A stretch of 63,069 bases of DNA from positions 1-63,069 of the forward strand of contig JBCCEA010000024.1 of assembly GCA_039030515.1 (NCBI GenBank), read 5' to 3'. The notes below the pieces were generated by a model. It searched no databases and was not told where the DNA came from. It saw nothing but the letters and a program-made list of their open reading frames with translations. This document shows positions 19,125 to 62,947 of the stretch, one piece after another. The DNA is from Myxococcota bacterium (GTDB lineage: Bacteria; Myxococcota_A; Polyangia; Polyangiales; Houyiibacteriaceae). Each line of letters starts with the position of its first letter. Within the stretch, counting starts at the first letter, position 1. The translations under genes and the position numbers were made by a program.

Positions 19125-19586
19125 TCATCGTCGGGTACTTGAACCGTCCGCGGTGGCCCGGAGGTAGCTGCGCTTGAGTTCCTCGAAACTCCGCCCCGGT
19201 TGCACCTCAGACGAAACCGCTCGACCAGCGGTCAGCCAACCAGGTTCTAAGATCTGCCCGAACGCATCTTTACTTCCCCCGAACCCGGCTCGGTTCTCGG
19301 CGACAGTAAATCCTGCTTCCTCGAGCAGCTGGGCCGCGGACTGACTCCTTCTACCTGACTGACAACCCACGATCACCGGCGTTCCCAGGTCGAAGTTGGC
19401 TTGAACCGTGGCAACGAAGTCTGGATTGGCTGTAAGGCCGTCTGCGCCAGCGAGCTTTATCGGCACGTTGTATGCGCCTTGGGGATGACCCGCTTCAAAC
19501 TCAGGAGTCGTTCTCACGTCGAGATAAACCCAACCTGTTTCAAGACGCTGTTCACACTCCTCTACCGAAATACGCTCCGCAGCCAT
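19125..19586 (-). CDS. Rhodanese-like domain protein
   Basis: LDVRTTPEFEAGH, CQSGRRS. Confidence 0.9.
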   Translation of the reverse strand: MAAERISVEECEQRLETGWVYLDVRTTPEFEAGHPQGAYNVPIKLAGADGLTANPDFVATVQANFDLGTPVIVGCQSGRRSQSAAQLLEEAGFTVAENRAGFGGSKDAFGQILEPGWLTAGRAVSSEVQPGRSFEELKRSYLRATADGSSTRR

Positions 19587-19654
19587 GATTCCCCCTACTG
19601 GACGCTATTTTGTATACCGCAAACAAGTTTTTTTGCAGCTCCTCTCCATAGCGG

Positions 19655-19858
19655 CAAGCGGCTGTTTGGGCCGACTCAGCGTCCACACCCCAGGGGGTCT
19701 CGTTGGTTCAAACAGCCAGCGCCCCCCAGCGCGTCTCGATGGGTTTGAACGCCCAGCGCCCCGCACGCGCAGGAGCGAAGGCGTACTTTAAGTACGTTGA
19801 GCGACGAGCATGGGAGGTAAGCAGGCGTTCAGGCCTAGCGAGGCGTGCTGGGGGGGTC
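19655..19858. repeat. Modular intergenic repeat family A, locus 3
   Basis: gctgtttgggccgac, ttggttcaaacagccagcgccccc, gtactttaagtacgttgagcgacgagcatgggagg, ggcctagcgaggcgtgctgggggg. Confidence 0.9.
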
Positions 19859-20851: not shown

Positions 20852-20946
20852 AGATCATCCATCCGAGTGCAGGTCTTATCATGGATTCCTGAGGCGCGCG
20901 GCGGGCCGGCCAAGAGTCGGAACGCGCGCTGGAAAGCGTAAAACAG

Positions 20947-21034
20947 GCAAAGCTCAATGAGAATAGGATAGGCCGGACAGGCAGGAGCAAAGCTCAATGA
21001 GAATAGGATAGGCCGGACAGGCAGGAGCAAAGCT
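20947..21034. repeat. 40-bp tandem duplication of the 3' end of the aminotransferase gene
   Basis: gcaaagctcaatgagaataggataggccggacaggcagga x2 plus gcaaagct. Confidence 0.9.
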
Positions 21035-22109
21035 TGTCGACCACGACGTCACAATCGTTCAGGTCCATTTGCGGGTGCAGGGGAAGCGCCAGCCCTTGAT
21101 TTGCGATCGTTTCAGCATGCAGCAGCGCAGAGGGAATGCGCGCTTTTTCGGCGATCGGTTTGATCTGATGCAGGGCATACGAGAGACGACCAGCCTCAAC
21201 ACCGAGTGTGCGCAGCCGGGCGATGATCTCGTCTCGATTCCCGGCGTTTAGAACCACGCCAAACGTTTGTACATTGGAGCTCGCCCCGGCTGGGTACTCC
21301 TGACGCGTCAGTGGCATCTCGCCCGACCGCTTATTCTCGTCCAGTCGGTTTCGGTAACGATCGGCTAGAGCTTGTCGTATTGCCACCGTCTCATCCAGTC
21401 GCTGCAGCTGCCCTTGCCCCAAAACGGCCGCGACTTCGGTCAGACGATGATTGAGCGCGGCGTGTTCGAACCGTCCCGCCTCCGCCTGTCCGTGATTGCG
21501 CAGAGAACGAAGCTCTTTCGCTAGGTCGATACGATCCGTAAGGCACATGCCACCCTCTCCGGTGGTGATCACTTTGCGCGGATGGAAGCTGAGGCAGGAG
21601 ACCAGACCGAAACTGCCGCACGGGCGACCGTCAGCGAATCGGGAGCCGATCGCGCAAGCAGCATCCTCGATCACGAGTAGGTCTTGGAGCGCGTCTTCGA
21701 TCGGGGCTCGGTCGACCGGTGCACCAAACTGGTCGATCACGATCGCGGCTCGCGTCGCATCGCTGCGCGCACGTCGGTAGTTCTCGGCGGTGGCGTTCCA
21801 GCTTTGAGGGTCGACATCGACCAAGACGGGGGCAGCACCGACGGCGATCACAGCATGAGCAGGGCTCGGCCAGGTCAGAGCCGGCACCAGAACCTCGTCA
21901 GAGGGGCCGAGCTGCAACGCGGAAAGAGCCAGATAAAGCGCCGAAGTTCCGCTGGAAACCGCTACCCCGTAGGTGCGGCCACAGCGACGCGCGCAGGCCG
22001 CCTCAAACGCGGCCACGTGTGCGCCCTGAGTCAACATGCCGGTTCGAAGCACCTCGAGTGCGGCCGCCAGTTCTTTTTCGTCAAATTCAGGTCGGGCCAA
22101 TCGGATCAT
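20994..22109 (-). CDS. DegT/DnrJ/EryC1/StrS PLP-dependent aminotransferase
   Basis: SSGTSAL, IEDAACAIG, SFHPRKVITTGEGG. Confidence 0.93.
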   Translation of the reverse strand: MIRLARPEFDEKELAAALEVLRTGMLTQGAHVAAFEAACARRCGRTYGVAVSSGTSALYLALSALQLGPSDEVLVPALTWPSPAHAVIAVGAAPVLVDVDPQSWNATAENYRRARSDATRAAIVIDQFGAPVDRAPIEDALQDLLVIEDAACAIGSRFADGRPCGSFGLVSCLSFHPRKVITTGEGGMCLTDRIDLAKELRSLRNHGQAEAGRFEHAALNHRLTEVAAVLGQGQLQRLDETVAIRQALADRYRNRLDENKRSGEMPLTRQEYPAGASSNVQTFGVVLNAGNRDEIIARLRTLGVEAGRLSYALHQIKPIAEKARIPSALLHAETIANQGLALPLHPQMDLNDCDVVVDKLCSCLSGLSYSH

Positions 22110-22262
22110 CCACCGAATCCTATCCGCCGAAGTGCTCGATGAACACCTCGACGTAGGTCTCGTGAGACAGCGCGCCGTGATCGATCAAAACCGGTCGGGG
22201 TTCGTTCTTTGAATCGCGATCTTCCTATCATTTCGATCAAAATTCGTTCTAGCCTAAAAATT

Positions 22263-25200
22263 GTGCCTCAGAAGACGACACCCGAGCGGATCGGGCGATA
22301 TCGAATACTTCGACGCGTAGGCGCTGGAGGGATGGCGGAGGTATTCCTTGCAAAGTCGGCTGGGGCCGAGGGCATTGAGAAGCTCCTTGTCGTCAAACGC
22401 ATCCTTCCGAGTTTTGCTCGGAGCACGAAATTTCTCGCGATGTTTGTGGACGAGGCCAAAGTGGCGATGCGTCTCAACCATCCAAACATCGTTCAGGTGT
22501 ATGCGTTTGACCAGGTCCGCGATCAGTTCTTGCTTTCGATGGAGTACGTCGACGGCCTGGATCTCGGCAGGCTGCAGTCTCTGGCAGAACGGCAGGGCGT
22601 ACGCGTGCCGTTCGGTATTTCTGCGTTTATCATGGTGGAAGTCGCTCGAGGCCTCGACTACGCGCACAATCGCCGTGACGAATCCAAGGCTCCGTTAGAG
22701 ATCGTCCACCGAGACGTGAGCCCTCAAAATGTGCTCTTGAGCTACGAGGGGAGCGTCAAGGTCACGGATTTCGGTATCGCTAAAGCGCGACTGGTTTCTG
22801 AGGAAACCGGAATCATCAAAGGAAAGTTCGGCTACATGTCTCCCGAGCAGGCCAAAGGAGAGCGTGTCGATCGCAGAAGTGACGTGTACGCGATGGGCAT
22901 CGTACTCGCCGAGCTCGTCAGCGGTCGGCAGATGTACCCCAAAAGGCAAGGTCTCGATGTGCTCGAGGCGGTTCGCTCCGGCAGGATCACGCTGCCCGAG
23001 GAGATTCGTTCGGATGTGCCCGCACAGCTCAACGCGATCGTGGCTCGAGCAACCGCTTTTCGCGCAGAAGATCGCTATCCGAACGCTCGCGAGTTTGGGG
23101 CGTCTTTAGCCCGCTACCTTCACGACCAAGATCGGGTTTTCGACGGAGGTTCACTGGAGACCTTCATTGAAGGACTGGTACCGAACGACAAAAACATCGC
23201 GGAATCTGAGCCACTCGGCACCTTTGCACTGGGATCCGTGGATTCGATGTTTTCGACCGAGCATGCCGAAGAGCGTCGTGAGCGGAGACATGTGGTGGCG
23301 GTGTGCGGGGTGCTCCACGGCCTAGACGATAGGCCAATGCAGGCCGGCAGCGGAGCCACAGATGGCCAAAAAGAGATCGCGCTACCGATCGAGGAAGGGT
23401 TCGGCGACGCGCACTCAAGCGATGGAGGTTCGGAGGCAAAAGACTCAGAAGATAGGGTGCCTTTCGAGCTTGCGAATCTACTCGCTTCCATCGCTTTTCG
23501 GAGTGATGCGGTCCTCGATTGGGATGTAAACCCGGAGCGCATCGCCATGCGCGTCCTCGTCGGACTGGGGCGCCCAAGCGTCAACGACCCGCTCGAAGCC
23601 ATCCGACTGGCCGCCGACAGCCTCGAAGCGACGGTCGGTCTTTCCGCAGATACCGCAAGCGGAATATCGATCTCGATCGGCGTTTCCCGTGGCGTCGTAT
23701 CCACCGTTCGTGACGGATCCGGCAGGCTGTTGCGGTACGAGCCGGTCGATGGAGGTCTGCGGCTCGGAGATCGCTTGGCGATCAAGGCAGGTCCGGGAGA
23801 AATTCTGGTAACAGGAGCCGTTTTTCGTTGGACCCATCGTTCCTTTGTCTATGAGGCACAGCCGCTCACGGTGCCGGAAACAGGCGCCGGATCTGAGGAT
23901 TCTGAGGGATCCACACTGCCCAGGAGCTCTGCGCTACCTACGAGCTCCACGTTGTCTACAGGCTCTGCGAAGGTGTCGGCCTACCGATTAAGGGGTTCGT
24001 GGAGTGCTCGGGAACGAACCGAACAACTGAAAACTACGAGCCGTGATTGGCCCTTTGTGGGTCGCGAGTCGGAGCTTCGCTCGCTGCAGTCGGATTTTGC
24101 ACAGACCGTATCTTTAGGCCGCAGCCACTTTCTCACAGTGCTCGGCGACCTGGGCGTGGGAAAAACTGCGCTTGTGCTGGAGTCGCTAGCTCGACTGCCG
24201 TCTCGAAGTTCCGTACTCCGATATGAATGCAGTTTCGGTGCGGATGCAGAGCCGTTTTCAGCCGTTCGTGAGCTTGTGCGCCTCGCATGCAATATCGACG
24301 AACGCGAGAAAAAAGAGGCTGCTTTGCTGCAGCTGCAGGAACGTCTCGACACGCTTGGGACAGAACCCACCAAGCAGCGGTTGATCCTCGAGGGGCTTCG
24401 GCCGCTATTTCTTGAGGGCGGTGATGCGGATCAAAGGCTACCCGAAGATAAGTCTCGCTCACTGATCGCTGGGGTGATCTCTCTGCTGACGGAAATGGCT
24501 CGTGAATCGCCACTGGCCGTGTGGATCGACGCGTTTCAGTGGATCGATGCGGCCAGTCTCGAACTCGTGCGCCAGCTTCGGGTGAGTCGCCGTGTTCCTC
24601 TATTTGTCGTCGTGTCCACGCGACCAGAGCCCGGGGTGCAAAACGTACTGGAAGGCGCCCCCTGCATGCGGATGGTCGAACTCTCTTTGGATCAAACGCA
24701 CGCGCTGATTCGAGCTCGTTTTCCGCAGGCCCAAGTACACGGCACCGTTTTGGACAGCATCGTAGAGCGGGCGGGCGGCAACCCTTTCTTTATCCTTGAA
24801 CTGCTCGATTCTCTCGTAGAGCAACAGGTGCTCAAAACCGTTGTCGAACGAGGCGAATCTTGGGTTCGGATGGTCGCAACCCCCGCGGCGCTACCGACGA
24901 CGCTTGAGGGCGTTGTCGCCGTTCGACTGGGTCAGCTGCCCGAGGAGGTCCGTCGTGCGCTGAGCTGGCTCGCCGTGGCCAGTCCGATCATCGATGCTGC
25001 GGATTTATCGGCCGTCGCGGGCAAGGATCTCAAGGGGCCCATCGCGGTGCTTGAAGAGCGAGGCCTGATCGAGAGAAGGTCGCGAGCCCGCCTCCAGTTC
25101 ACGAAGGCCGTCGTTCGCTTGGTGGCGTACGAATCGATCGATCGAGAAGATCGCGCTCGAATGCATCGGCGGCTGGCCCAGCATATCGAGCAGAGCAAAC

Positions 25201-26513
25201 TCGACGTTCCGGGAATCTATCTCGCACGTCATCTCGAATTTGGAGGAGAGCGAGCGCGGGGAGCAAACGCGTATCTTCGCGCGGCGTCCGAGTATGCCGG
25301 CCGATTTGCCTATCGCGCAGCCCTGCGCAGCTTCAACAAGGCGATCGAACTTCTGGAGCGACATTCAAGGGAGAGTTTTCACGCTCATGAAACCTGCGAT
25401 GAAATCTTGCGAGGTTTGGGGCGCCCTCCTTCGGATCGGACGCGTCATGTCGATTCAATGCTGGAAATCGCGGAGTCACAGAAAGACTACTCGCTTGAAA
25501 GTATTGCGATGGGCTGCAAGGCACGGCTGATGCTGGACTTGGGGATCACCGCGCGCGCAGGTGCAGTACTGAGCCGCGCAGATATGGCAGCAAACGCAGC
25601 CGGCGATCGTCGATTGCGGGTGCGCGCGCTTCTTCTGCGAGCGGAGCTCCACCGCATCGAGGACTCGGTCGAGTCTGCACTGCAGGTGGCGGACTTGGCG
25701 TTTGCCGGGGTTGTCGAAGATCCTTCGCTGGTCTTGGACAGGGCGCGTGTTCAGGCAGAGCGCGCCCGGCTGCTCTTGGCACTTCGGAAACTAACGGAGG
25801 CACAACAAGCGGCGGCAGAGGCGGTTGTCGTCGGTCGGCGCACCGGCTCCGATCGGTTGCAGGAAGATGCGCTGCGTACCTTGGCCCGGGCACTCAGCGC
25901 TCAGGGACGCTGGGAGGACGCGATTGCCGCCGCCCTCGCGGCGTCTGCAATCTCGAAAACGACGGGCACTTGGCTTTCGCTAGGAAACGCTCTTGCGCTG
26001 ATCGGATCGGTATACGCCCACCTTGGGGAATACCGTCGTGGCGGCGCTTTTTTTGAGCGCGCGAGCTCCGTCTATGAAGCCGCAGCGGAGCATCAGCCAC
26101 TGGTCGAGTCGCTAAGCCGCCAGGCCGAAATGGCTTTGGATCAGGATGAAGACATCAACCGGGCGAGCAAGTATCTCGAAAAAGCAAAAGGCGTGATCGA
26201 GCGATCGAGCGAGGAGCAAAGATTCCCTTGGTTTTGGCTGGTGCAGGCACGTATGGACCAGATGGCGACTCGTCTCGACGAGGCCGAACTCGCAGCAGAG
26301 CGGTCCGTACGCGGGTTCCGTGAATCTGGAGATTTGACGCAGCAGCTCTATGCGTCCGCACTGCTTGCCGGCCTAAGGCTGCGGGTAGGCAAAGGGGTCG
26401 ACGCGTACCTACTGGCGGAGCACACGGCGCTCGGCCTCGGGATGCGGCGTCACGGGTATTCAAGCCTCGCTACCCGTGCCCTTTTGGGACAGTTTTTTTT
26501 TGGACGCCGGTGA
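22263..26513 (+). CDS. Ser/Thr kinase + degenerate cyclase-like domain + AAA/STAND ATPase + TPR-like repeats; likely continues to 26652 across a T9 frameshift
   Basis: GAGGMAEV, HRDVSPQN, DFG; FVGRESEL, GDLGVGKT, GGNPFFI; helical repeats. Confidence 0.88.
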   Translation: MPQKTTPERIGRYRILRRVGAGGMAEVFLAKSAGAEGIEKLLVVKRILPSFARSTKFLAMFVDEAKVAMRLNHPNIVQVYAFDQVRDQFLLSMEYVDGLDLGRLQSLAERQGVRVPFGISAFIMVEVARGLDYAHNRRDESKAPLEIVHRDVSPQNVLLSYEGSVKVTDFGIAKARLVSEETGIIKGKFGYMSPEQAKGERVDRRSDVYAMGIVLAELVSGRQMYPKRQGLDVLEAVRSGRITLPEEIRSDVPAQLNAIVARATAFRAEDRYPNAREFGASLARYLHDQDRVFDGGSLETFIEGLVPNDKNIAESEPLGTFALGSVDSMFSTEHAEERRERRHVVAVCGVLHGLDDRPMQAGSGATDGQKEIALPIEEGFGDAHSSDGGSEAKDSEDRVPFELANLLASIAFRSDAVLDWDVNPERIAMRVLVGLGRPSVNDPLEAIRLAADSLEATVGLSADTASGISISIGVSRGVVSTVRDGSGRLLRYEPVDGGLRLGDRLAIKAGPGEILVTGAVFRWTHRSFVYEAQPLTVPETGAGSEDSEGSTLPRSSALPTSSTLSTGSAKVSAYRLRGSWSARERTEQLKTTSRDWPFVGRESELRSLQSDFAQTVSLGRSHFLTVLGDLGVGKTALVLESLARLPSRSSVLRYECSFGADAEPFSAVRELVRLACNIDEREKKEAALLQLQERLDTLGTEPTKQRLILEGLRPLFLEGGDADQRLPEDKSRSLIAGVISLLTEMARESPLAVWIDAFQWIDAASLELVRQLRVSRRVPLFVVVSTRPEPGVQNVLEGAPCMRMVELSLDQTHALIRARFPQAQVHGTVLDSIVERAGGNPFFILELLDSLVEQQVLKTVVERGESWVRMVATPAALPTTLEGVVAVRLGQLPEEVRRALSWLAVASPIIDAADLSAVAGKDLKGPIAVLEERGLIERRSRARLQFTKAVVRLVAYESIDREDRARMHRRLAQHIEQSKLDVPGIYLARHLEFGGERARGANAYLRAASEYAGRFAYRAALRSFNKAIELLERHSRESFHAHETCDEILRGLGRPPSDRTRHVDSMLEIAESQKDYSLESIAMGCKARLMLDLGITARAGAVLSRADMAANAAGDRRLRVRALLLRAELHRIEDSVESALQVADLAFAGVVEDPSLVLDRARVQAERARLLLALRKLTEAQQAAAEAVVVGRRTGSDRLQEDALRTLARALSAQGRWEDAIAAALAASAISKTTGTWLSLGNALALIGSVYAHLGEYRRGGAFFERASSVYEAAAEHQPLVESLSRQAEMALDQDEDINRASKYLEKAKGVIERSSEEQRFPWFWLVQARMDQMATRLDEAELAAERSVRGFRESGDLTQQLYASALLAGLRLRVGKGVDAYLLAEHTALGLGMRRHGYSSLATRALLGQFFFGRR

Positions 26514-44959: not shown

Positions 44960-45709
44960 TTAAGCATCCAAGCGCGCGAGTGCGGACTCGCTGAGTTCGA
45001 AGTCCGTGAAAACGCTTTGGATATCGTCATGGTCGTCTAGAGTCTCAAAAAGACCGACGAGTTTTTCAGCGTCCGCATCGTCCGCAAGTTTGGGCGTTTT
45101 TGGAATCTGCGCGAGTCGGGTCTGTAGCTCACGGTAGCCCGCGCCTTCGAGAGCATCGCGAACCACGTCCATCGCGTCTCGCGGCGTGGTCACCAGCCAG
45201 TGGTCTCCATCTTCGACAAGGTCTTCGGCCCCCGCCGCACCGGATACTTCAAAAAGCGCCTCTTCAGTCGCGGCTTCTCTTGGCAGCTTGATCGTCCCTT
45301 TCTGGTCGAACGCCCAGGAGGCCGAGCCGCTTGCTCCGAGCTGACCACCGTATTTGTCGAAGATCTTTCGAATCTCTGGGGCGGTACGGTTGCGATTGTC
45401 CGTCATCACCTCGAGCAGAAAGAGGGTCCCCCCCGGGCCAACCCCTTCATAAAGCAGCTCCTCGTAGAGCACGCCCTCCAGCTCTCCAGTGCCTTTCTTG
45501 ATGGCCCGGTCGATATTGCTGGCCGGCATATTGTTCGATTTTGCGAGGTCGATCGCGTTTCTCAGACGAGGATTTCCGGCCGGATCTCCTCCTCCCAGAC
45601 GCGCGGCGATGGTGATCTCTTTGATCACCTTGGTGAAGACCTTACCGCGCTTGGCGTCCGCAGCGCCCTTTTTCCTCTTGATCGTCGACCATTTGCTGTG
45701 ACCACTCAT
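44960..45709 (-). CDS. yebC: YebC/PmpR family protein
   Basis: MSGHSKWSTIK, YEG, TDNRNRT; usual position upstream of ruvCAB. Confidence 0.95.
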   Translation of the reverse strand: MSGHSKWSTIKRKKGAADAKRGKVFTKVIKEITIAARLGGGDPAGNPRLRNAIDLAKSNNMPASNIDRAIKKGTGELEGVLYEELLYEGVGPGGTLFLLEVMTDNRNRTAPEIRKIFDKYGGQLGASGSASWAFDQKGTIKLPREAATEEALFEVSGAAGAEDLVEDGDHWLVTTPRDAMDVVRDALEGAGYRELQTRLAQIPKTPKLADDADAEKLVGLFETLDDHDDIQSVFTDFELSESALARLDA

Positions 45710-45737
45710 TGAGCTCTGGACGTTAGGCGTCCTCCCC

Positions 45738-45805
45738 GGGGGGCGTCAAGCCGCTGTAGCTGGGGGGCGTCAGCCGCTGTAGCCGGGAGGCGTCAAGCCG
45801 CTGTA
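45738..45805. repeat. 23-24-bp tandem repeat x3
   Basis: ggg(g/a)ggcgtca(a)gccgctgta upstream of yebC. Confidence 0.8.
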
Positions 45806-47022: not shown

Positions 47023-47036
47023 GGCTCTCGTCCCAA

Positions 47037-47078
47037 GCAATGCGCTGATATTGCCTGCTGGGTGCCCTCGCCTAAGAT
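47037..47078 (+). promoter_or_regulatory. Island promoter cassette, copy 1
   Basis: GCAATGCGCTGATA-TTGCCT-16bp-TAAGAT, 12 nt before ATG; near-identical copies at 49479 and 54485. Confidence 0.7.
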
Positions 47079-47090
47079 TGTGAAGGACGT

Positions 47091-48002
47091 ATGGGCAGAC
47101 GGCAAAGACGGCAAAGACGGCGAAGGCTGGAGCAACCGACACCCCCGGTTCCGATGAGGCATGTCAGAGCCCGTCTTGGCGAAGATCCTCCAGCTTCTGC
47201 AGCACCGCCGGTACCGCCTGCAAGATTCGTTATGCCGCCACCAGTACCGACTATGCCACTAGTACCGGCTTTGCCACCAGCTCCGCCGCTTGGGCGCCTC
47301 AGTCAACCTCAAGGATTTCCAGCCCCAACTTATAGTCCCGGCAGTAACGCTAACAACAACATATTCCCAAACCAAGATCGCGAGCACGCCTTAGCAATGT
47401 GGAATCAACTAGCCAGTGTTCGCTCGGGACTACCAAAGCTATCGGTAGACTCCATTCGCAAACCAATCTCTAGACTGCATGTCCTGATGCAACATCTTAC
47501 TCCAGCGCTAAGTTTGGCAGAGGTCGAGCGTCTAATCGATTACGCAGACTCAATTCGTAACCGACGAGGTCCACCGAGCGCCCACCCAGAGGTGTGTAAC
47601 GTTTATGGACAGCTCAATCGAAGCTTCATATCCCATGTGGCAAGGACACTGGGGATAGGCTGCGTAGAAGACAGCAAAATCTCCCTACAATTGGACATGG
47701 CTCTTTGCGCACTATTTGATACGAAACCATTCAGTGGCTGGGACCGCAACTTCAAGCACGACCCCGGTAACGTTGCGATGTTTGCTGTACGCCTGCGATT
47801 GATGACCTATTTCACGAGCATGGATGAGGTTGACTCGGGAGACTACCTGCCTCTACTTTACGCCGACGGATTGTTCGTGCCTGGTTTTGTCCGCTTCTGT
47901 GGCAATAAACCAACCTCGTGGAGCCGGTCTAATTTTGTATACTACTGTAAAAAACACTTCAAAAATCAGATCAAAGACAAGCCTCTCCCGATCGCAGATT
48001 GA
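47091..48002 (+). CDS. Island paralogue 1: Arg-rich N-terminus, Pro-rich tract, unknown helical domain (divergent member)
   Basis: MGRRQRRQRRRR; HLTPALS, QLDMALCAL, AVRLRL and LLYADGL align with the other paralogues. Confidence 0.75.
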   Translation: MGRRQRRQRRRRLEQPTPPVPMRHVRARLGEDPPASAAPPVPPARFVMPPPVPTMPLVPALPPAPPLGRLSQPQGFPAPTYSPGSNANNNIFPNQDREHALAMWNQLASVRSGLPKLSVDSIRKPISRLHVLMQHLTPALSLAEVERLIDYADSIRNRRGPPSAHPEVCNVYGQLNRSFISHVARTLGIGCVEDSKISLQLDMALCALFDTKPFSGWDRNFKHDPGNVAMFAVRLRLMTYFTSMDEVDSGDYLPLLYADGLFVPGFVRFCGNKPTSWSRSNFVYYCKKHFKNQIKDKPLPIAD

Positions 48003-48363
48003 GAAACTTAAATTTCAAGCAAAACACTGGCAAGAGCTGTTGAATCAATTCCTTCGCTCAAGCTATTCAAGCTATTGTCCATAGCCGATTCAAAACGAGG
48101 CTAAACACGTAAAGCGACGGCGAGTCACCTCGCCTCTAAAGACGATGTCCGCAAAGCCACAGTCGTTGAGGCGAGAGGTTTGGTCCGGTCGACTGATAAG
48201 GTAAAAACCAGATGCGGCAGTCATATCTGACTGCAAGCTTAGGGCAATGTCACTGCGAGCTTGGGGCAACGTGACCGCCCTGAGAGAGCTTGATGCCCTC
48301 CCCCCGGCAGACCGCGCTATCGATCGAGGCTGCCTCAAGGGCATCTACCGCCCGCAATCCTGA

Positions 48364-48405
48364 GTAATCCAATGACATTGACGATAGCGACCCGTACCTC
48401 GAGCT
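48364..48405 (+). promoter_or_regulatory. Island promoter cassette, degenerate copy 2
   Basis: GTAATCCAATGACA-TTGACG-16bp-CGAGCT, 13 nt before ATG 48419. Confidence 0.45.
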
Positions 48406-48418
48406 TGTAAGACGAATT

Positions 48419-49381
48419 ATGTCCAATAGAAAGCGACCGCCGGACTATCCTCTGACTGGTCGACCGTCTGAGCGTCTATGCTTGAGAGCGGGTGGAGCCG
48501 AAAGCTCCGTTGGAGGCGGGCCCCCACCGGTAAGCCAGGGTCCTTTTATTCCGCGCCCTCTGGTTTTTCCATATCCGCATGCGTCACAAGGAGCGCCAGC
48601 CCCGCCTTTACCGCCAGCCGTTCCGCCAGGGCATGTGGCTAATCGAGAACGCATATCGGACGAGGAGGCGTCAGGTTTCCTGCATTTCGTTCGAAGCGCC
48701 GAACGTCTACGTAATCTGAAACAAGCTCTCACAGAAATTCGTGGAAAAGGCCGCACCGTGCTGCCAGGGTTGGTTGGCAAAGATGCAACTGAGTTGCTTA
48801 GAGACGTATCACCTTATGCTGAGAAACTAACTCCTCCGCTATTTCCCGACGACATCGCGAAGTTAGACTTTCGATTGAAAAACGGACAGCCTTTTGGAAT
48901 CGGTCTATTGAACTGTTACTATCGTTTGCATCAAAAAAAATCGCGTCAAGAGAGGGACAAGCGTACTGCAGATGAGATCTTATATCATCTCGGCGATCTA
49001 CACACGCATCGTCAAATCGCTACAGCACTTTATGCATTGGCACAAAAAGGCATGTTTGAAAGGTTTGGTTACCACCAGACGAAGAAACGATACCGACTTG
49101 TTGCTCACTTGAGGGTCATCGAATGGTTACATTTTTTTACGAAAGCAAATATTCACTTAGACGAAAAGAGAATTAATCCATCTTATATTTTTTCATTGCT
49201 CATGGCAGATGGGCTTATCGACCGGGATTTTATAACTTATTGGGTGAACAATTATAAGTCTAGCTGGTGTATGACTCTTGGAACGTGGAAGGACCATCAC
49301 GCCGGGAATTACGCAAAGTTTCCAGGCCCTTTTGATGCTCGAGATCCTCTGTATCACGTTGGACCTGCGATGCTTTGGTAG
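48419..49381 (+). CDS. Island paralogue 2
   Basis: MSNRKRP; KLTPPL, HTHRQIATAL, HLRVIEW, LLMADGL, FDARDPLY. Confidence 0.85.
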   Translation: MSNRKRPPDYPLTGRPSERLCLRAGGAESSVGGGPPPVSQGPFIPRPLVFPYPHASQGAPAPPLPPAVPPGHVANRERISDEEASGFLHFVRSAERLRNLKQALTEIRGKGRTVLPGLVGKDATELLRDVSPYAEKLTPPLFPDDIAKLDFRLKNGQPFGIGLLNCYYRLHQKKSRQERDKRTADEILYHLGDLHTHRQIATALYALAQKGMFERFGYHQTKKRYRLVAHLRVIEWLHFFTKANIHLDEKRINPSYIFSLLMADGLIDRDFITYWVNNYKSSWCMTLGTWKDHHAGNYAKFPGPFDARDPLYHVGPAMLW

Positions 49382-49428
49382 CCGCTCTCAACGCAACTGC
49401 CAAGATGATGTGGTCCGGTGCACCTTGA
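49381..49428 (+). repeat. 3' trailer repeat, copy 1
   Basis: gccgctctcaacgcaactgccaagatgatgtggtc.g.tgcaccttga, also at 50651. Confidence 0.9.
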
Positions 49429-49478
49429 GATCTTAATAATTTAGGTGCAGCGACGGCGTCTGAGTCCTATCGTTCCAG

Positions 49479-49520
49479 GCAATGCGCTGATATTGACGAC
49501 CGGGTCCTGTAGCCTAGGCT
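49479..49520 (+). promoter_or_regulatory. Island promoter cassette, copy 3
   Basis: GCAATGCGCTGATA-TTGACG-16bp-TAGGCT, 12 nt before ATG. Confidence 0.75.
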
Positions 49521-49532
49521 TGCGCGATACGT

Positions 49533-50648
49533 ATGGGGAAACCACGAAACAAGCGTCGTCGCGTAGTTTGGGCAACTCCGGCTGATGACCCTGCCAACAG
49601 TCCGCAGGTTCCGCCCAGACCCGCTGCTCAAGCAGGTCAGTACGGAGCACGAGTAACACGCTTCCATCACGGGCAAGACCTCAGTCCTTTTGTGCCGCGA
49701 GGTTCAACATTCTGCCCGTCACCCGGGACAGGGAGCGTTGGAGTACCGCACTCCCCGCCTTCAGCGTTCGAGATGCCGCCACCGGCGGACCCAGTCCGGC
49801 CTCCGCAGGCGCCTGTCCTGCCACCACCGGTACCGGCGTTATCACCAGCCCCGCCTTTGCCGCCAGTCATTCCGTCAAGGCATATGGCTAGTGCAGGTTC
49901 CGGATTGCCGCAGCGTGGGTTAAGTTTCTCGCATTGCACTCGACCTTTCGACTGCTCAAACAATCTAAAGCTAGGATTCAAAGCAATTAGCGGAGCAGAC
50001 GTACCCAAGCTGCCAAAGTTTCCTGGGGATAATATAGAAAAGAAAGTAAATAAATGGTGGGCAGACATATCGCCTTGTGTTGGAAAACTAACTCCTCCAC
50101 TACTTCCCGACGACATCGAGAAGTTAGCCAATCGGTCGCAAACAGAACATTCTCGCAACCTCGATCTGTTATCATATTATTACGAATTATACGGAAACCA
50201 ATCACCTCAAGCGAGTGATATGCTTATCGCAAATTCGATCTTGCATCAGCTCGGCAAGCTGCATACACATCGTCAGATAGCCACAGCGCTTTGTGCACTA
50301 AGAACAAAAGGCGTATTTGCACAACTCGGTTACGATCGCGAGGACAAGTGGTGCCTGCTTGCTACTCACTTACGAGTCATCGAGTGGTTACATTACTTTA
50401 AGAAAGCAAATATCCGTTTTAAGGGAAAGCGGCCTACGGGGAATTATGTTCTTGTATTGCTCATGGCGGATGGACTTCTCGATTCCGGATTTATAGACTA
50501 CTGGAGACATAGCGCATATTTTGATTGGTCTCATGCCTTTTGTATCTGGCGAGATAATTACGATAAAAAACCTAGTGGTTTTCCAGAACCCTTTGATGAT
50601 CATGACCCTTTATATCGCCTTTATCATGCTGCACCTGCTGTGACGTGA
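49533..50648 (+). CDS. Island paralogue 3
   Basis: MGKPRNKRRRV; long Pro-rich tract; KLTPPL, HTHRQIATAL, HLRVIEW, LLMADGL, FDDHDPLY. Confidence 0.85.
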   Translation: MGKPRNKRRRVVWATPADDPANSPQVPPRPAAQAGQYGARVTRFHHGQDLSPFVPRGSTFCPSPGTGSVGVPHSPPSAFEMPPPADPVRPPQAPVLPPPVPALSPAPPLPPVIPSRHMASAGSGLPQRGLSFSHCTRPFDCSNNLKLGFKAISGADVPKLPKFPGDNIEKKVNKWWADISPCVGKLTPPLLPDDIEKLANRSQTEHSRNLDLLSYYYELYGNQSPQASDMLIANSILHQLGKLHTHRQIATALCALRTKGVFAQLGYDREDKWCLLATHLRVIEWLHYFKKANIRFKGKRPTGNYVLVLLMADGLLDSGFIDYWRHSAYFDWSHAFCIWRDNYDKKPSGFPEPFDDHDPLYRLYHAAPAVT

Positions 50649-50650
50649 GA

Positions 50651-50698
50651 GCCGCTCTCAACGCAACTGCCAAGATGATGTGGTCAGATGCACCTTGA
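50651..50698 (+). repeat. 3' trailer repeat, copy 2
   Basis: 46 of 48 nt match 49381-49428. Confidence 0.9.
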
Positions 50699-51157
50699 AA
50701 AAATCTAATAAACCAGAAACCAAAGCGCTTTAGACGAGTTGCATATGAAACTCTGTTTGCAGACTGGCTAGTACGCATACGTCGACGCCAAAACCGCTGT
50801 GCCCCCTCATTTTGACCCTCCTGCGTACGACCGAGTCATGAGACCAAGTTACTCCGAAACTACATCGGAATTGCATCGAACGAGCCGCTACTTGGCGAAC
50901 ATCAGTTGTCTGGAACCGTAGATCGTCACCTAGAGTGCGCAAGTTGTCCGCAGGCACACAAGAGATTCGAATAATATGACCTCAGATTTGTGAAATTTGG
51001 TCAGAATTTCTCCATGCCCGGGACGCCGCATTGCTTGTGGGTTCTTGAGAACGTACTTAAATATGCGCTTGCTTCAGCCCTGGTGATGGCGCGGAGACAC
51101 TTAAGACTGCACGTAGTTTTTGCCTGGCACCGTATCCAAACGAATAAAGCTTTCACT

Positions 51158-52532
51158 ATGCGCTCCCCAACCTCAAGCATTCCTCGACCAGAGAAATGGC
51201 CGTTGCCCCTGACCGGTGACGATGTGGATCAATGGATTGAACTAGGGGATGCACAGGCGTTTAGGTGCAACGCGATAGATATCCTGAATGATATTGGTGC
51301 ACATCCTGCATTTTCTATTCTTCGGGAATCAAAGGATCAGAATGAGTGTCAGATCATCGAAGGTGCACTCCAACGCCATGTGACTTCCGACAGATACAGC
51401 AAAAAAGGCACAGAACGTTTCCACTGGATGGCCATCAAAATAAGCCTCGAGTTGATTCTAACATAAGTATCGCGAGGAGCGATCACGAACCAAAGAATCT
51501 ATTCTTTCGAGAACGTTTCGAGTTCGGTGATATCGGTTCTTTATCGAAGATAGTGGCATGGGAGACTCGTATAAGAAATAACCTTCGGGAACATGAAGCT
51601 CCGCATGAAGTAGCCAACTTGACTCTGGAGAGCTTCATGGCGCAAGTCGCGAGATATCGAGAGTCAAACTCATCACCTGGAACCAATCCACGCACTGGCG
51701 TAGGCGTTAGTCCGCAGGTGACCGTTACGTCATCCCGTTCGGTCCCCAGACCTTTTGGGCCACCGCCCCCGCCCCGTCAGCCACTCGCGGCAAGTTTACC
51801 GGCTCCTCGCGTATGGAGTAGTGCGCCAGTGCCCGCTGAAGCCGTGCGCCCTGGACGGGTTGGGCTTCATATGCCGACCGCGCCGGATGCTCCGCCAGGC
51901 GCCTCAGGTTCGCCGGCAGGAACTCCGAGTATGGATGACGCCAATCCGCTCTTCAGATTCGCTGAAATCTGCGCCGAACGGGCCCCGGATTCTAGAAAAA
52001 GACCGGCCTCTCCCGGAGCAAAACGCTTCCAAGAGCCAAGCATCCTCATGGCGCCGCAAATGCCGACGGCAAGAGCCATGCCACCAGTCATCATGGCGCA
52101 CCCCATTCTTCAGTACCTGGGGGGAAATCGCGGTTACCCATCACTCCCGAAGATGTTCGCAGTTTATGGGAACTGCTTAAGAGATCTCCAAAGGGTCCCG
52201 TACCCGGCGACATCAGCTTGGCAGATGCAGCGCCAGAGACAAAGGTCGCTATAATGCATATGCTATCTGTGCTGAAGCAGCACCCTCAAGAAATGGACGC
52301 GACGACGATCCAATCTATACAAATTCAATTGTCTCGAAAAGCAGGCAAAGATCCTAAGACACAAAATGAGCGGTATTCGATATTGATAAGCCTGAGGATG
52401 CTCGCAAAATTAGGAGATCTTCTGCGACTTAAGTTTAGAGGATTCTGCTCATCATACCAATTTATTCTTCCTCACGACCTAACCACGGATACCTTGCGCT
52501 GTTGGATTCGCCAAGAACTGCAAGTCAAATAA
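51158..52532 (+). pseudogene. Probable island paralogue 4, broken by two frameshifts (about 51460 and about 52220)
   Basis: Three overlapping same-strand ORFs that join into domain / Pro-rich+RKRPASPGAKR / domain, like the neighbour at 52747; domain similarity is weak. Confidence 0.5.
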
Positions 52533-52746
52533 GAAATCACGAATCATCGCTTCTAAAGGCAGCTCATCGGCCGGCTGCGAATCGATCGCTGAACCCGGCC
52601 ATGGCTTCGCAAGATGAACTCGCATGAAACAGCAGTAGGGTGCGTACAATGACCTAACCATCGAGTGTTCTTGGCATCGCACGCGCAGTCTCTACGCTCG
52701 CATGAGCGGCGTTTGACATTCAGATTCGATACGTCAAACCGATTGG

Positions 52747-54396
52747 ATGCCCCAAGGGCTCTCTCTAGACACTATTTGGGCCATCTACCGATGGATGCAG
52801 GCTAGCTCTCAAGACTCGTGGCATGGAGACATGCAGCTTGATAATCTTCGCCGACAACTTCGCAATAGAGGATTCTCTTTTACCGAAGTGCAATTGAGAA
52901 GAGCAATCGCGAAGCTACATCGAGATATTCGATCGTCTCTAGACACCCAGACAGTGAATAGTACTCTAGTGGATGTCGCGGCTTGTGTGCGCGCTCAGGA
53001 CTACTTTGATGCAGAACCCAACATGCGGGATGACGCGGTTCTTTCTGCGCTCATCAGAGATGGTTATTACAGGCTTCCGACTCAGTATATAGCTCAGTAT
53101 CGACATGACTGGTTGCACACTGCATCCTCGAGTGGGGTAGGCAGTACAGTACCGGGTAGAGTGGCAAGCCCAGAATCTGTTGGACCAACGATTCAAGGCG
53201 GCTTGCCGGGACCCGTGGTCCCACCACGGCCGGTTTTTCCAGGGTCCGTTGCGCCCATGTGGACCGCTGCCCATGGGCATCGGGCTCCAGCCGGGGAGCC
53301 ACCTCTCAAACGACGATGCCTCGCATGTCCGCTCGAAGCGTCGCGAGAGCCCGCCACCCCTGACGATCAGGCGCAATCCAGCCTACCACCAGAAACACGT
53401 TCACCACCAAGAGCCGCAAGTCCGGCTAGCACGGCCGGTCATGTCTCGAGGGGCTCCGGATGCATCCCACCTCTATCGCAAGCGGCACTGACAGCAGCGT
53501 CAAATACAAACCAAGCGGCCATGGATGGTCGCAGAGAATTTCCCCAATTGCTGCCTCCGATGCTCCCGAAGCAGATGCTGAAGAGGTTGCAAGAAACTTA
53601 CAATCGATTGCTAGAAACCGGTCGGTCAGAGAGACATGCACTTCAGAAACTGCTCGAAATTGTGAGGAAGAGCGGCCACTTCTATGAAGAAAGACAGCTG
53701 ACCAAGGCGCTCAGCGTGGCGAAAAGGGAAGACAGGTTTAGAAATTGGAACCGCAGTCTAGAGCACGTGGCAGCGAGACTCCGCACCGAAGAGATCTTAA
53801 GTTATTGCCAAACCACTTCAGTGGATGAAATTAAAATAAGACTTGAAGAAGAAGGATTGGCGTTAGGAATAAGTCGTCTGGAGAACTGCATTCTCTTGTG
53901 GAAAAACGAGTACACGACTCAACTTTTGAATCATGCTTCTGTCGAGAGAGACATCGCGGATCGAACTCCTCAAAATCAGCCCGACTCGGTCTTGGAGACA
54001 ACTCAGAGGCAGCTACCTCCTGAGCTCAGGGCAGAGGCACTCTTTGATTTGCCAGAAAGCAACCAGGCTGTAACCGTTCCACCAATTCGAGCCGATGTGG
54101 ACAAGGCGCTACGGTCTGTAAAAAGCAGAACACGTCACTGTAGCCCTGAGCAAATCAGAAAAGCTCTTTGCACTATTTGCAACTCAGAGAAAACTCAAGG
54201 CAGGGAAACCTCACTACAGATTGTGGCAGCTCGTTTGCGGACCGAGGAGATTATCTACCGTTTTTACGATGTACCACCACATGAAATATGCATCTTGCTC
54301 AGGGTAGAAGGTTTGTCCGAAAGGTCCAACGATTTGAGGGGTCAAGTGCTGAACTGGAAAGCCAACTATTCGTCGATCAGTTCGGATTCAGCCTAA
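52747..54396 (+). CDS. Island paralogue 5: three copies of the helical domain plus Pro-rich linker with PPLKRR
   Basis: QLRRAI..VAACVR..LIRDGY; RQLTKAL..VAARLRTEEI..LEEEGL; EQIRKAL..VAARLRTEEI..LRVEGL. Confidence 0.8.
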   Translation: MPQGLSLDTIWAIYRWMQASSQDSWHGDMQLDNLRRQLRNRGFSFTEVQLRRAIAKLHRDIRSSLDTQTVNSTLVDVAACVRAQDYFDAEPNMRDDAVLSALIRDGYYRLPTQYIAQYRHDWLHTASSSGVGSTVPGRVASPESVGPTIQGGLPGPVVPPRPVFPGSVAPMWTAAHGHRAPAGEPPLKRRCLACPLEASREPATPDDQAQSSLPPETRSPPRAASPASTAGHVSRGSGCIPPLSQAALTAASNTNQAAMDGRREFPQLLPPMLPKQMLKRLQETYNRLLETGRSERHALQKLLEIVRKSGHFYEERQLTKALSVAKREDRFRNWNRSLEHVAARLRTEEILSYCQTTSVDEIKIRLEEEGLALGISRLENCILLWKNEYTTQLLNHASVERDIADRTPQNQPDSVLETTQRQLPPELRAEALFDLPESNQAVTVPPIRADVDKALRSVKSRTRHCSPEQIRKALCTICNSEKTQGRETSLQIVAARLRTEEIIYRFYDVPPHEICILLRVEGLSERSNDLRGQVLNWKANYSSISSDSA

Positions 54397-54484
54397 ACTT
54401 GCGGCACGGGCTCGTTAGGCGCACCACCGGCCTGTTCGCCTACCGGACCAGGTACGGCTTCGCAACAGAACCACAGCGTCACGA

Positions 54485-54526
54485 GCAATGCGCTGATATT
54501 GACGACTGGGTCCCATAGCCTACGCT
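54485..54526 (+). promoter_or_regulatory. Island promoter cassette, copy 4
   Basis: GCAATGCGCTGATA-TTGACG-16bp-TACGCT, 6 nt before GTG 54533. Confidence 0.75.
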
Positions 54527-54532
54527 TGCAAG

Positions 54533-55510
54533 GTGCAAGGCGACGGACGGAAGCGAAGACGAAGACCTACCCCCACTCCTAGGGTATTCGCACCATCTTA
54601 TGATCAGGCAGATACATATCCTCTTGGAAGGCCACGCTCTAGAGAGGGCACAACATTTACCTTGCCTCCATCACCCACGTCTTCGCCTCCAACTTCAACA
54701 TACGCTTCACCACCAGCACCAGCTGGGCCCCCAGTTCCGGGTCCGCAACACGAACTGTACAAAGATGCGATATGCGAGTTGCGTAAGACCGATGAAGGGG
54801 CCGTCTCAAGTTTCCGGAGCGAAGTGGGAGTAAGGCAGCGATTTGAGAACGCACGCCAGGCAATCCTTAGAGTCAATTCACCCAAACTTCCACGGTATAG
54901 TGGAAGTTTGGGTGAAGATTATTTGTTCATTCAATTATCATCTATGGCTCACAAACTAACTCCTCCACTATCTAGAGAAGACATCGATACGCTAGCCACT
55001 CATTTTGAAACAGGGCACCCCTCTAGAGGAGCTCTGTTCCGGGTTTATTGTGACCCAAAGGGACAGCGACCGCTTCAAACGGGTGACCAGCGGATCATAC
55101 AGTCGATCTTGCTAGAGCTCGGCAATGTGCATACGAATCGTCAGATTGCCACTGCGCTTTATGCGTTAGAAGGAATGGACCCGTTTCGCGGGTACCACTA
55201 CAAGGAGGACCAGAATCTTTACATGCTTGCTCCTCACTTACGAGTCATCGAATGGATGACGTTATTTGCAGCTGAACCTCCCAAAGAACCGAGAACTGAT
55301 TCAAAACATTATCTCACGCTGCTCATGGCGGACGGACTTTTTAGTGACGATTTTCTAACGTGTTGGGCCAACGACCATAGTGCTAGCCCGTGGTCTCGGA
55401 GGTTTAACAACTGGAAAAACCATTACCTTGGTAACCAGAATTCATTTCCTAAGCTTTTTGACCCACGCGACCCTTTGTGCCGGGTTTATCCCCTGTATGC
55501 GCCCCTATGA
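54533..55510 (+). CDS. Island paralogue 6
   Basis: GRKRRRRP; KLTPPL, HTNRQIATAL, HLRVIEW, LLMADGL, FDPRDPL. Confidence 0.85.
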   Translation: MQGDGRKRRRRPTPTPRVFAPSYDQADTYPLGRPRSREGTTFTLPPSPTSSPPTSTYASPPAPAGPPVPGPQHELYKDAICELRKTDEGAVSSFRSEVGVRQRFENARQAILRVNSPKLPRYSGSLGEDYLFIQLSSMAHKLTPPLSREDIDTLATHFETGHPSRGALFRVYCDPKGQRPLQTGDQRIIQSILLELGNVHTNRQIATALYALEGMDPFRGYHYKEDQNLYMLAPHLRVIEWMTLFAAEPPKEPRTDSKHYLTLLMADGLFSDDFLTCWANDHSASPWSRRFNNWKNHYLGNQNSFPKLFDPRDPLCRVYPLYAPL

Positions 55511-55660: not shown

Positions 55661-56000
55661 CCGGACCGGGTGCGGTTTCGCCTACTCACCGACCTGACCA
55701 GGTACGGTTCCTCCGAACTCTCCGACCTGACCAGGTACGGCTCCACCCTGACCGGGTACGGTTTCTACCTCACCGACCTGACTGGGTACGGTTCCTCCAC
55801 GGTTTCTACGACCTGACCAGGTACGGTTCCTCCGCCTACTCACCTACCTGACCAGGTACGGTTTCTACGACCTGACCAGGTACGGTTTCGCCGACCTGAC
55901 CAGGTACGGTTTCACCGGCCGGGCACCCACCGACCTGACTCACCGACCTGACTGGGTACGGTTCCTCCGACCCGCCCACCGACCTGACCGGGTACGGTTT
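55661..56000. repeat. Short repeat family B cluster (ACCTGACCAGGTACGG), about 10 full copies
   Basis: Copies near 55692, 55725, 55747, 55776, 55811, 55846, 55870, 55894, 55946, 55982 with irregular spacing. Confidence 0.92.
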
Positions 56001-62177: not shown

Positions 62178-62262
62178 GACGTCAGAGGTTTTTTGAACCT
62201 CTCCGATTCGCCTTAAGGTCCAACCGGGCATTACCTAACGCCCCGTAAATCTGACCCGCTTA

Positions 62263-62947
62263 ACCTGACCAGGTACGGCACATCGTTGTATACCCCAACA
62301 CCGCACCAGGTGTTGAAAAAGCGAAAAGCGGCTTGGAGCCAATCCTATTTCATTGAAGTCCTAGCTAATGGCTTTCCCCAGATTTAGATGCGCTCGCCCT
62401 GCGTCTGTTTACGAAATAGAAGCACAAGTTTGTGTGTCGTCAAAAAAGGACGCAAGAAGCTGGTTGTCATTGGTCTTGTGGCACTTTTTCGACGCTTTTT
62501 TCGCATCGCTGGGTTTCATGGAAAAGAACTTAGCCTCACAGCGAAGTCTGCATAAAGCTTTACCCATCAACTCTCATGTAACCTCTTGCCGTAATGGAAC
62601 CACGGCCCTTGCTTCTAATCGGCCGGCGATATCGCTCGAGTCGTAGGAAGATCCGATAATACTGCTGTATTATGTTTCATGGCTCGTTTGACAAGGTCAC
62701 CGTCAAGCACAGCCCGCGTCAGTTACGCGTCTCACCCTGCACCTGACCAGGTACGGCACATCGCTGTATACGTCCAGCTGCACTGCAGCCTCAAACCGGA
62801 CCAGGTACGGCGCTGCAGCTTCTTCCCGCGCCTGACCAGGTACGATGCTGCAGCCTGCTCACGCCTCTCCCCACGCCTGACCAGGCACGGCACATCGCTG
62901 TACCTATCCAGCTGCACTGCAGCCTCAAACCTGACCAGGTACGGTTT
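62263..62947. repeat. Short repeat family B, second cluster (about 6 copies), including a 69-bp duplicated unit
   Basis: Copies near 62263, 62741, 62795, 62831, 62876, 62929; 62742-62810 is nearly identical to 62876-62944. Confidence 0.88.

Follow-up and report, generated by a model that had tools for sequence, protein, structure and literature searches.

The window examined here, a stretch of 63,069 nucleotides, is one contig (C24) of the genome of an uncultured Myxococcota bacterium, which comprises 4.08 Mb in 75 contigs and is 85% complete. Positions 47091 to 55510 hold an array of eight open reading frames (ORFs), all in the same orientation, and five of their products are paralogues with a common domain. 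These proteins and their relatives elsewhere in the genome are discussed as candidate nucleus-targeted effectors (Table 1). The named nearest neighbours of the RuvB protein of this genome are labelled Myxococcota or Polyangiales, at 68-74% identity, and the DNA may originate from one of four marine metagenome runs of a single study.

A preliminary description of the locus, made from the sequence alone, had seen an AT-richer block of six co-oriented paralogous genes inserted among ordinary genes. The AT-richness is borne out: the GC content per kb is 0.45-0.54 between 47001 and 55000, compared with 0.58-0.63 between 39 and 47 kb, and the eight ORFs have a GC content at third codon positions (GC3) of 0.43-0.51, whereas for the genome the median is 0.62 and the 5th percentile 0.53 (gene caller of this analysis). 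The GC dip extends beyond 55.5 kb. The clean insertion does not hold, since the genes flanking the array lie 1.8 Mb apart in a one-contig relative genome (G011) and are not neighbours in the relatives; the site is a synteny break. Five genes are counted rather than six because ORF E has no domain copy.

Table 1. Features of the array and its right edge, in positions of the window
Feature	Position	Strand	Remarks
Shared upstream element (GCAATGCGCTGATATTG...)	47036..47081	+	TTGCC 40 nt before gene A ATG
Gene A	47091..48002	+	303 aa
Gene A, Arg-rich N-terminus	47097-47126	+	followed by Pro-rich tract
Gene A, divergent domain copy	47490-47960	+	
Degenerate upstream element	48363..48408	+	TTGACG 41 nt before gene B ATG
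Gene B	48419..49381	+	320 aa, with Pro-rich tract
Gene B, RKRP	48428-48439	+	
Gene B, domain copy	48821-49300	+	
Upstream element	49478..49523	+	TTGACG 40 nt before gene C ATG
Gene C	49533..50648	+	371 aa, with Pro-rich tract
Gene C, classical NLS-type KPRNKRRR	49539-49562	+	
Gene C, domain copy	50082-50561	+	
ORF D	50990..51466	+	158 aa, low GC3, no significant domain match
ORF E	51346..52254	+	302 aa, Pro/Ser-rich tract, no domain copy
ORF E, RKRPASPGAKR	51994-52026	+	
Open frame overlapping end of ORF E	51996..52532	+	weak domain-like pattern
Gene F	52747..54396	+	549 aa, three domain copies
Gene F, domain copies	52747-53136, 53554-53934, 54079-54390	+	
Gene F, domain copy modelled	53554..53934	+	six helices; residues about 1-60 and about 62-127 each form a three-helix HTH-type unit
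Gene F, PPLKRR in Pro-rich linker	53299-53316	+	
Upstream element	54484..54529	+	TTGACG 34 nt before gene G GTG
Gene G	54533..55510	+	325 aa, with Pro/Ser-rich tract; start GTG
Gene G, classical NLS-type RKRRRRP	54548-54568	+	
Gene G, domain copy	54950-55426	+	
Intergenic repeat cluster (ACCTGACCAGGTACGG)	55691..55997	+	9-10 copies; right edge of array, not family-specific

The products of genes B, C and G do share the motifs noted before, such as KLTPPL, and are 39-44% identical over about 240 aa (E 1e-35 to 1e-57), and two further members of this KLTPPL clade lie on contigs C28 and C56. Gene A is a divergent member, as had been proposed, with 28% identity to gene G (E 1e-7). Gene F indeed carries a shorter core three times; its repeats 2 and 3 are 33% identical (E 7e-12), repeat 1 is weaker (E 0.007), and an hhalign comparison (80%, E 1.3e-5) shows homology between the repeats and the KLTPPL core. 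The array ORFs have no transmembrane segment, the maximum 19-residue hydropathy being 0.75-1.45, in agreement with the preliminary description. The frame overlapping the end of ORF E has a domain score of 5.1 bits, which is reached by 2 of 500 shuffles, and an hhalign value below 1%; by sequence, ORF E and this frame may at most be a broken family member. An assembly error at their junction is unlikely because a contig from a second run spans it without differences.

An iterative hidden Markov model (HMM) seeded only with the three repeats of gene F converges on 20 ORFs (best reversed decoy at E of at least 0.7), and with gene A and the C56 copy the family comprises about 22 ORFs. This search, like those for secretion systems, covers the 85%-complete genome. 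The nine loci, on C2, C6, C19, C22, C24, C25, C28, C46 and C56, have low GC3; several are tandem arrays, and some members are fragments. A module of 120-160 aa is present one to three times in each product, amid disordered-looking Pro/Ser-rich segments. The domain alignment consists of 31 hand-trimmed copies, among which the core residues Q (27), R (24), L (30) and W (25) are conserved, and the tree of these copies has long branches and mainly resolves within-locus groups. HMMs built with one locus left out regain most omitted members, including gene F (E 2e-19), four of the five C25 ORFs (E ≤0.005), two of the three C19 ORFs (E ≤2e-8) and both C6 ORFs (E ≤0.002). A non-circular profile-profile comparison of the six KLTPPL-clade domains with the 22 domains outside the window gives 95% (E 2e-8), and the best of 40 column shuffles gives 0.45%. 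Another comparison, of profiles A4 and A2, is circular and is not used.

The preliminary description recognised no family for the domain, and the library searches lead to the same result. No Pfam family matches the 31 domain copies at the cut-off; for the ten window ORFs scanned, no family for the array reaches it, the best match being DUF2520 (E 0.076). NCBIfam contains no family for the two members scanned, and PHROG gives no family match. The family is not found in 40 relatives, 87 genomes of the same bacterial family, 400 sampled Myxococcota (best ten candidates per genome scored) or the viral contigs searched. A five-sequence clade profile has six matches among 1.84 billion protein representatives, all from this organism or from contig L008, and a word-indexed protein database yields only own- or same-strain proteins. 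Several candidates were rejected: two weak matches (E 0.003) in the 87 genomes, whose loci are ordinary enzyme-like ORFs or a shadow frame; a metagenome match (L009) that is antisense to an ABC-transporter substrate-binding gene; and two partial matches (E 0.04-0.05) in genomes bearing the T6SS gene iglI, which are treated as chance. As far as these searches reach, the family is lineage-restricted and occurs outside this genome only in a near-identical strain.

L008, the only locus found outside this genome, is the counterpart of this array in another metagenome-assembled genome. It is identical through gene A and nearly so through gene B, and then abruptly becomes about 15% divergent in the gene C slot, with a dN/dS of about 1 and indels in the 5' part. 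The contig (4466 bp) is filed as 'Pseudomonadota bacterium' and is near-identical to the myxobacterial locus over its first 3.3 kb; it is probably mis-binned. Older paralogue pairs have a dN/dS of 0.41-0.72. A contig of run X2 returns from the end of gene C (50700) to just before its start (49444), which suggests an extra tandem copy of gene C, and a contig of run X4 differs over gene F at about 10% of positions, compared with 2-4% in the flanking genes.

The upstream regions are shared as well. TTG(A/C)C precedes the first start codon of genes A, B, C and G and of the C28 copy by 34-41 nt, and an exact 16-mer of the element occurs three times in the window, where 0.46 occurrences are expected even with three mismatches allowed. 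Gene F has TTGACA 34 nt before its ATG; TTGAC is found at the same distance before this gene and two members elsewhere, with a background of 63 of 2275 ordinary genes. To judge from the sequence, the element is a putative promoter that was duplicated with its gene; the wording is kept at 'putative' because a sigma-70 scan does not call the upstream elements (3 sites found, 6.6 expected). The idea of a regulon box was dropped, the weight matrix being strong only ahead of the five closest paralogues. The NCBI-derived records of genes A, B and C start at internal codons and drop the basic, Pro-rich N-termini, and other database records hold the long forms. The long starts are supported because the element common to the paralogues precedes the first start codon. 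An inverted repeat, GTTTGAC...GTCAAAC, at 52715-52740 overlaps the TTGACA upstream of gene F and is a possible operator.

One domain copy of gene F was modelled by AlphaFold2 with the 31-copy alignment, giving six helices with a pLDDT of 88.6 and a pTM of 0.75. Foldseek finds nothing at E ≤0.001 among PDB structures and viral models. With an exhaustive structural aligner, each half of the model aligns separately, and the best matches listed are mostly nucleic-acid-binding helix-turn-helix (HTH) modules. Residues 1-60 match the Zeste DNA-binding domain (DBD) (Z 6.5, rmsd 2.9, 64 aligned), GT-1 (6.4, 2.7, 57), R2 (6.2), the Timeless DBD and SNAPc (6.1 each) and MYB repeats (5.4-5.6, R2R3-MYB 5.6). 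Residues 62-127 match PAX6 (residues 70-133; Z 7.3, rmsd 3.0, 63 aligned) and P-element transposase (7.1, 2.2, 62), and also an anaphase-promoting complex (APC/C) subunit (6.6), FF domains (5.4-6.3), Cas12f and capicua C1; PAX5 reaches 6.1. Because no match reaches Z 8, the model is taken to indicate a tandem three-helix HTH-type architecture and neither family membership nor function; a fold of this type points to DNA or chromatin binding. Most conserved positions are hydrophobic; also conserved are [CH]T-x-x-Q where helix 3 begins, an R within helix 4, (D/E)G following helix 5 and a W within helix 6. The putative recognition helices vary among the copies. The domains have a median net charge of +1, compared with -2 in control windows, and are thus the more basic (p 2e-5). 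The best PDB sequence match of the family profile is MTA1 (E 0.005-0.03, profile positions 29-123), which provides the only such matches below E 0.05.

Nuclear localisation signals (NLSs) were sought with monopartite patterns, and 2149 ordinary proteins of similar length and 1000 shuffles served as controls. Strict motifs are present in 6 of the 22 family ORFs and in 63 of the 2149 control proteins (Fisher p 4e-5), a level reached by none of the shuffles. K-(K/R)-x-(K/R) is found in 10/22 compared with 303/2149 (reached by one shuffle in 1000), and four basic residues in five in 13/22 compared with 390/2149; the members entering these statistics are paralogues and thus not independent. The enrichment is specific to the family, since only one of 72 other low-GC3 ORFs has a strict motif. 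The NLS-type motifs occupy non-homologous positions at the N-terminus, in the linker or at the C-terminus. NLS-type motifs are enriched across the family over both controls, but of the six basic clusters quoted in the preliminary description only KPRNKRRR in gene C and RKRRRRP in gene G match the consensus. The cluster of gene A consists of Arg only, and RKRP, RKRPASPGAKR and PPLKRR do not fit K-(K/R)-x-(K/R). Classical NLS definitions are given in PMC13311002, and the candidate lists in the available text of that source include ribosomal and cell-division proteins, which is a warning of false positives.

Pro-rich tracts are present in 17 of the 22 members and in 36 of the 2149 ordinary proteins. 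Acidic tails, judged by the last 20 residues, occur in three members outside the window and in none of the window genes, at a control rate of 7.7%. The three (C25:52797, C6:75147 and C2:223945) are amphipathic, with 4-7 net acidic charges in these residues, and presumably resemble eukaryotic acidic activation domains.

A type VI secretion system (T6SS) cluster is located on contig C32 (23580-42206) and contains TssB/C/E/K/F/L/M-like genes. It has IglI (NF041244, 223 bits, cut-off 100) and IglE_N (PF22361, 46.9, cut-off 26), and the large sheath subunit TssC, the single TssC found in the genome, has IglB as its best PDB match (399 vs 341 bits). A weak IglH match, an 820-aa ORF weakly matching the VgrG of Francisella (E 0.18) and an unassigned low-GC3 ORF of 235 aa directly after TssC are also present. 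Of 400 other Myxococcota sampled, nine were found to have IglI, whereas none of the 23 from the same bacterial family was; TssC occurs in 8 of the 87 genomes of that family, at no more than 38% identity. A second, canonical T6SS fragment (C44:25316-30863), at a contig end, comprises Hcp, TssE, TssF and TssG with a GC3 of 0.35-0.45. The genome has a flagellar cluster, and the search for injectisome export genes found one FlhA/SctV and one FliP/SctR, both flagellar. VirB4, for type IV secretion, and the sheath of extracellular contractile injection systems were not found in the genome search. A T6SS with Francisella-type components is thus present as a candidate delivery route, none having been visible to the preliminary description.

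The C32 cluster resembles the Francisella pathogenicity island T6SS (subtype ii) in IglI and IglE_N over the cut-off, in the IglB-like large sheath subunit and in the weak IglH and VgrG matches. It differs in that it belongs to a myxobacterium, whereas reviews, in their available portions, assign subtype ii to Francisella (PMC5924787, PMC13577199). In Francisella the system serves phagosomal escape (PMC5924787, PMC13577199), and the effectors that it delivers include some whose genes lie outside the island (PMC13577199).

Other low-GC3 orphans have features of eukaryote-directed proteins; calmodulin binding and ubiquitin ligation are sensible mainly inside eukaryotic cells. A Pfam scan covered 60 hand-picked proteins, taken from 267 low-GC3 ORFs and supplemented with the T6SS genes; most of the proteins scanned have no family. 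Five IQ-motif matches lie in four ORFs (two over the cut-off), compared with three single weak ones in 87 relatives. Three of these orphans with IQ calmodulin-binding motifs are adjacent paralogues (C2:182861-188200), and one combines a weak IQ motif with a RING-like finger (C17:55738-56580). The RING-like orphans number three, all below the Pfam cut-off, and include two inside the flagellar cluster (C1:50973-51611 and 52383-53180). The C46 array (17495-26204) is a tandem array of six low-GC3 beta-propeller-like orphans with WD40-type matches in five, two of them over a cut-off. Similar orphans are found at C25:33768, C26:16174, C26:34257, C28:31540 and C33:8928, and possible F-box-like N-termini in WD40 orphans are unproven, one of five (C26:16174) having a weak Pfam match (E 0.15). 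Orphans with Cys-His-Asp-type motif spacing (C5:54593, C5:135183, C14:2604 and C19:15378) have no Pfam match, the three scanned against NCBIfam were negative, and we take them to recall cysteine-protease or transglutaminase effectors.

The reading favoured here, to which about an even chance is given, is that the family consists of injected, nucleus-targeted, transcription factor (TF)-like effectors that bind DNA or chromatin and are aimed at a eukaryotic cell. It is based on the existence of a lineage-restricted, strain-variable family, its architecture, the fold of one copy, the enrichment of motifs and the presence of a T6SS. Close paralogues and their upstream element were duplicated as a unit, and strains differ strongly in one slot. 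The proteins would be exported without a signal peptide, most plausibly via the C32 T6SS with its Francisella-type parts, and the basic clusters would allow importin-mediated entry into the nucleus. There the tandem HTH would bind host DNA or chromatin, with specificities that would differ through the variable third and sixth helices, and host transcription would be altered, in some members aided by Pro-rich tracts or acidic amphipathic C-terminal tails. This chain of export, import, binding and transcriptional effect, drawn from sequence and model, could hold or fail with equal probability. The proposal of nucleomodulin-like effectors in the preliminary description is partly supported: no examined condition that would have refuted it, on the domain, the basic clusters or the delivery route, came out against it, but it loses the classical NLS in every member and the sixth paralogue.

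Several results weigh against this reading. Of the 22 members, 16 lack a strict NLS and none carries a bipartite one; bacteria, too, use basic tails to bind DNA. The confident model represents one gene F copy; the KLTPPL clade folded poorly (five-sequence alignment, pLDDT 43), and its model was not used for the fold search. FF domains, which do not bind DNA, and the APC/C subunit tie with the top structural matches, and at these Z scores the fold may be a mere common helical arrangement. The predicted recognition helices are not Lys/Arg-rich, and the net charge is positive in 17 of the 31 domains and negative in 10. In the leave-one-locus-out searches the KLTPPL clade is weak: gene B reaches E 0.013, genes C and G are at the decoy level, and gene A and the C28 and C56 copies are not listed at E <3. 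The dN/dS near 1 and the indels of the variable slot fit decay as well as diversification. As for delivery, the small sheath subunit TssB of C32 scores higher with VipA (69 bits) than with IglA (60 bits), and no IglC or PdpA match was obtained among the T6SS genes, which may also set the cluster apart from subtype ii; the nine other IglI-bearing genomes lack the HTH family, and none of the family members is located next to T6SS, VgrG or PAAR-like genes.

The same genomic context would be expected if the helical module of eukaryote-targeted effectors bound proteins, such as corepressor or chromatin complexes (cf. SANT/ELM2, FF), in the nucleus or cytosol. The MTA1 sequence match, the FF domains on the second unit and the acidic third of the domains are in line with this, but MTA1 is not among the 50 matches listed in either structural comparison, and DNA-binding HTH modules dominate those matches; this reading is considered unlikely, if still worth keeping in view. 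It is quite unlikely that the proteins are the bacterium's own transcription or nucleoid regulators, in which the basic clusters would be DNA-binding tails. The HTH-type fold and the lack of an identified export signal agree with this, as does a stretch RKRGRPP in one member, which resembles an AT-hook, and myxobacteria use eukaryote-like DNA-binding modules internally, such as the HMGA-type domain of CarD. Own regulators do not sit well, however, with a family missing from the 87 and 400 genomes searched, with low-GC3, tandemly amplified and strain-variable genes, with the failure to find a sensor or dimerisation domain (Pfam, window ORFs), or with the co-occurrence of compositionally similar orphans that bear IQ, RING-like and WD40 motifs.

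A slim chance is given to decaying, nearly neutral copies of a transposase-derived bipartite HTH, amplified locally and without present function. Transposase HTHs (P element, IstA, TnsB, Mu) are among the structural matches, several members are fragments, and the variable slot has a dN/dS of about 1. On the other hand, no Pfam family, transposase or other, reaches the cut-off in the window ORFs, the profile misses the many transposases expected in 400 genomes, the older pairs combine lower dN/dS values with long open frames, and core residues and upstream elements are conserved alongside the NLS enrichment. It is very improbable that the proteins are antibacterial T6SS toxins whose target is the DNA of prey or competitor bacteria: the two T6SS loci on C32 and C44 and the established predation of myxobacteria on bacteria would suit such toxins, but no small immunity-like gene is paired with each array copy, no nuclease or other toxin domain was found (Pfam, window ORFs), and the NLS enrichment would be left unexplained.

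A few further features accompany these loci. The repeat ACCTGACCAGGTACGG (in the window at 55691-55997, 54441 and 62262-62944) is REP-like and has 335 copies in 76 clusters on 34 contigs; as a general driver of duplication it was rejected, since it adjoins only two of nine islets. Three short direct repeats (GGCGTCAAGCCGCTGTAG-like) at 45718-45805 lie upstream of a YebC-like gene (44960-45709). Orphan paralogues at C56:5144-5968, C56:8763-9698 and C17:56608-57267 share CKxG...HF.L.GID...TGSELRW and have no Pfam family; the two on C56 flank the HTH family member of that contig. A tandem pair of low-GC3 Ser/Thr kinase orphans is found at C2:198894-201639. Long helical orphans with basic N-termini (C22:35237-43067, C35:769-9143, C19:16563-18324 and C7:8401) have no family at the cut-off where scanned, and a W-x-H/N-Y...HxTIC-like domain at the C-terminus appears to be common to C22:39384, C22:41205 and C19:16563.

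Among known systems, HsvG and HsvB of Pantoea agglomerans are, in the available text of two sources, likewise paralogues that carry NLSs, activate transcription and contain several HTH motifs, which form a putative DNA-binding domain (PMC12886408, PMC7819608). They differ in being two plasmid-encoded paralogues delivered by a type III secretion system into a plant host, whereas no injectisome export genes were found in the 85%-complete myxobacterial genome. Library searches of the family gave own-lineage proteins only, the HsvG sequence itself not being compared. Wmk of Wolbachia, as the accessible part of PMC12504857 presents it, has a tandem HTH pair, occurs in clusters of several copies, is often truncated or fragmented, and is proposed to act on host chromatin. 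Its domains, however, are XRE-family HTHs (XRE/HTH_3 is listed for none of the 31 copies, Pfam, E ≤1), and it is prophage-associated, in contrast to a family with no PHROG match or viral-contig relative. It is an evenly balanced possibility, by analogy, that the family would act like HsvG/HsvB or Wmk with membership in neither.

The TAL effectors of Xanthomonas and Ralstonia similarly combine expanded paralogues with a DNA-binding region, NLS and activation domain, according to the available text of PMC12886408. The present family lacks their near-identical tandem repeats of 33-35 aa and any TAL Pfam match, and its fold and secretion route are different. Myb/SANT-like, trihelix (GT-1, Zeste) and PAX domains resemble the modelled copy in three-helix HTH units and a bipartite arrangement (Z 5.4-7.3, tied with unrelated matches), and the L-x3-G-x2-[CH]T-x2-Q turn of the family presumably resembles the trihelix/Myb turn. 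Each alignment covers a single unit, with 2-14% identity and Z below 8; PF13837 has no match in the genome (E ≤10), and no Myb family appears among the member matches. Unlike Myb/SANT-like domains, the family has a single conserved Trp, in the second unit, and none in the first. For PAX, Pfam gives E 0.19 in one of the 31 copies, and whole-length Foldseek gives E 1.7-2.5 with a high rmsd.

A few bacterial plant pathogens and insect symbionts are known to possess TF-like effectors, and the available text of a 2026 review asks whether more of them, with unrecognised DNA-binding domains, exist (PMC12886408). No description of this HTH family or of a Francisella-type T6SS in Myxococcota was found in the literature searched, which covered few subscription papers and no supplements. 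From its sequence, this appears to be an undescribed domain family in a phylum unexpected for TF-like effectors. With about 31 natural variants of a single small module that folds well, it would allow nuclear import, DNA specificity and transactivation to be tested directly, and it points to a eukaryote-directed lifestyle and to a T6SS with Francisella-type parts in Myxococcota. A bolder and more tentative view is that this marine myxobacterium is a specialist on a eukaryotic host or prey, with a Francisella-type T6SS that delivers more than 20 rapidly diversifying, sequence-specific TF mimics built on an undescribed Myb/paired-like tandem HTH, in addition to calmodulin-binding and ubiquitin-ligase-like effectors. 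If true, a phylum noted for killing bacteria would possess a reprogramming system on the scale of the TAL effectors, built on a new scaffold for DNA binding.

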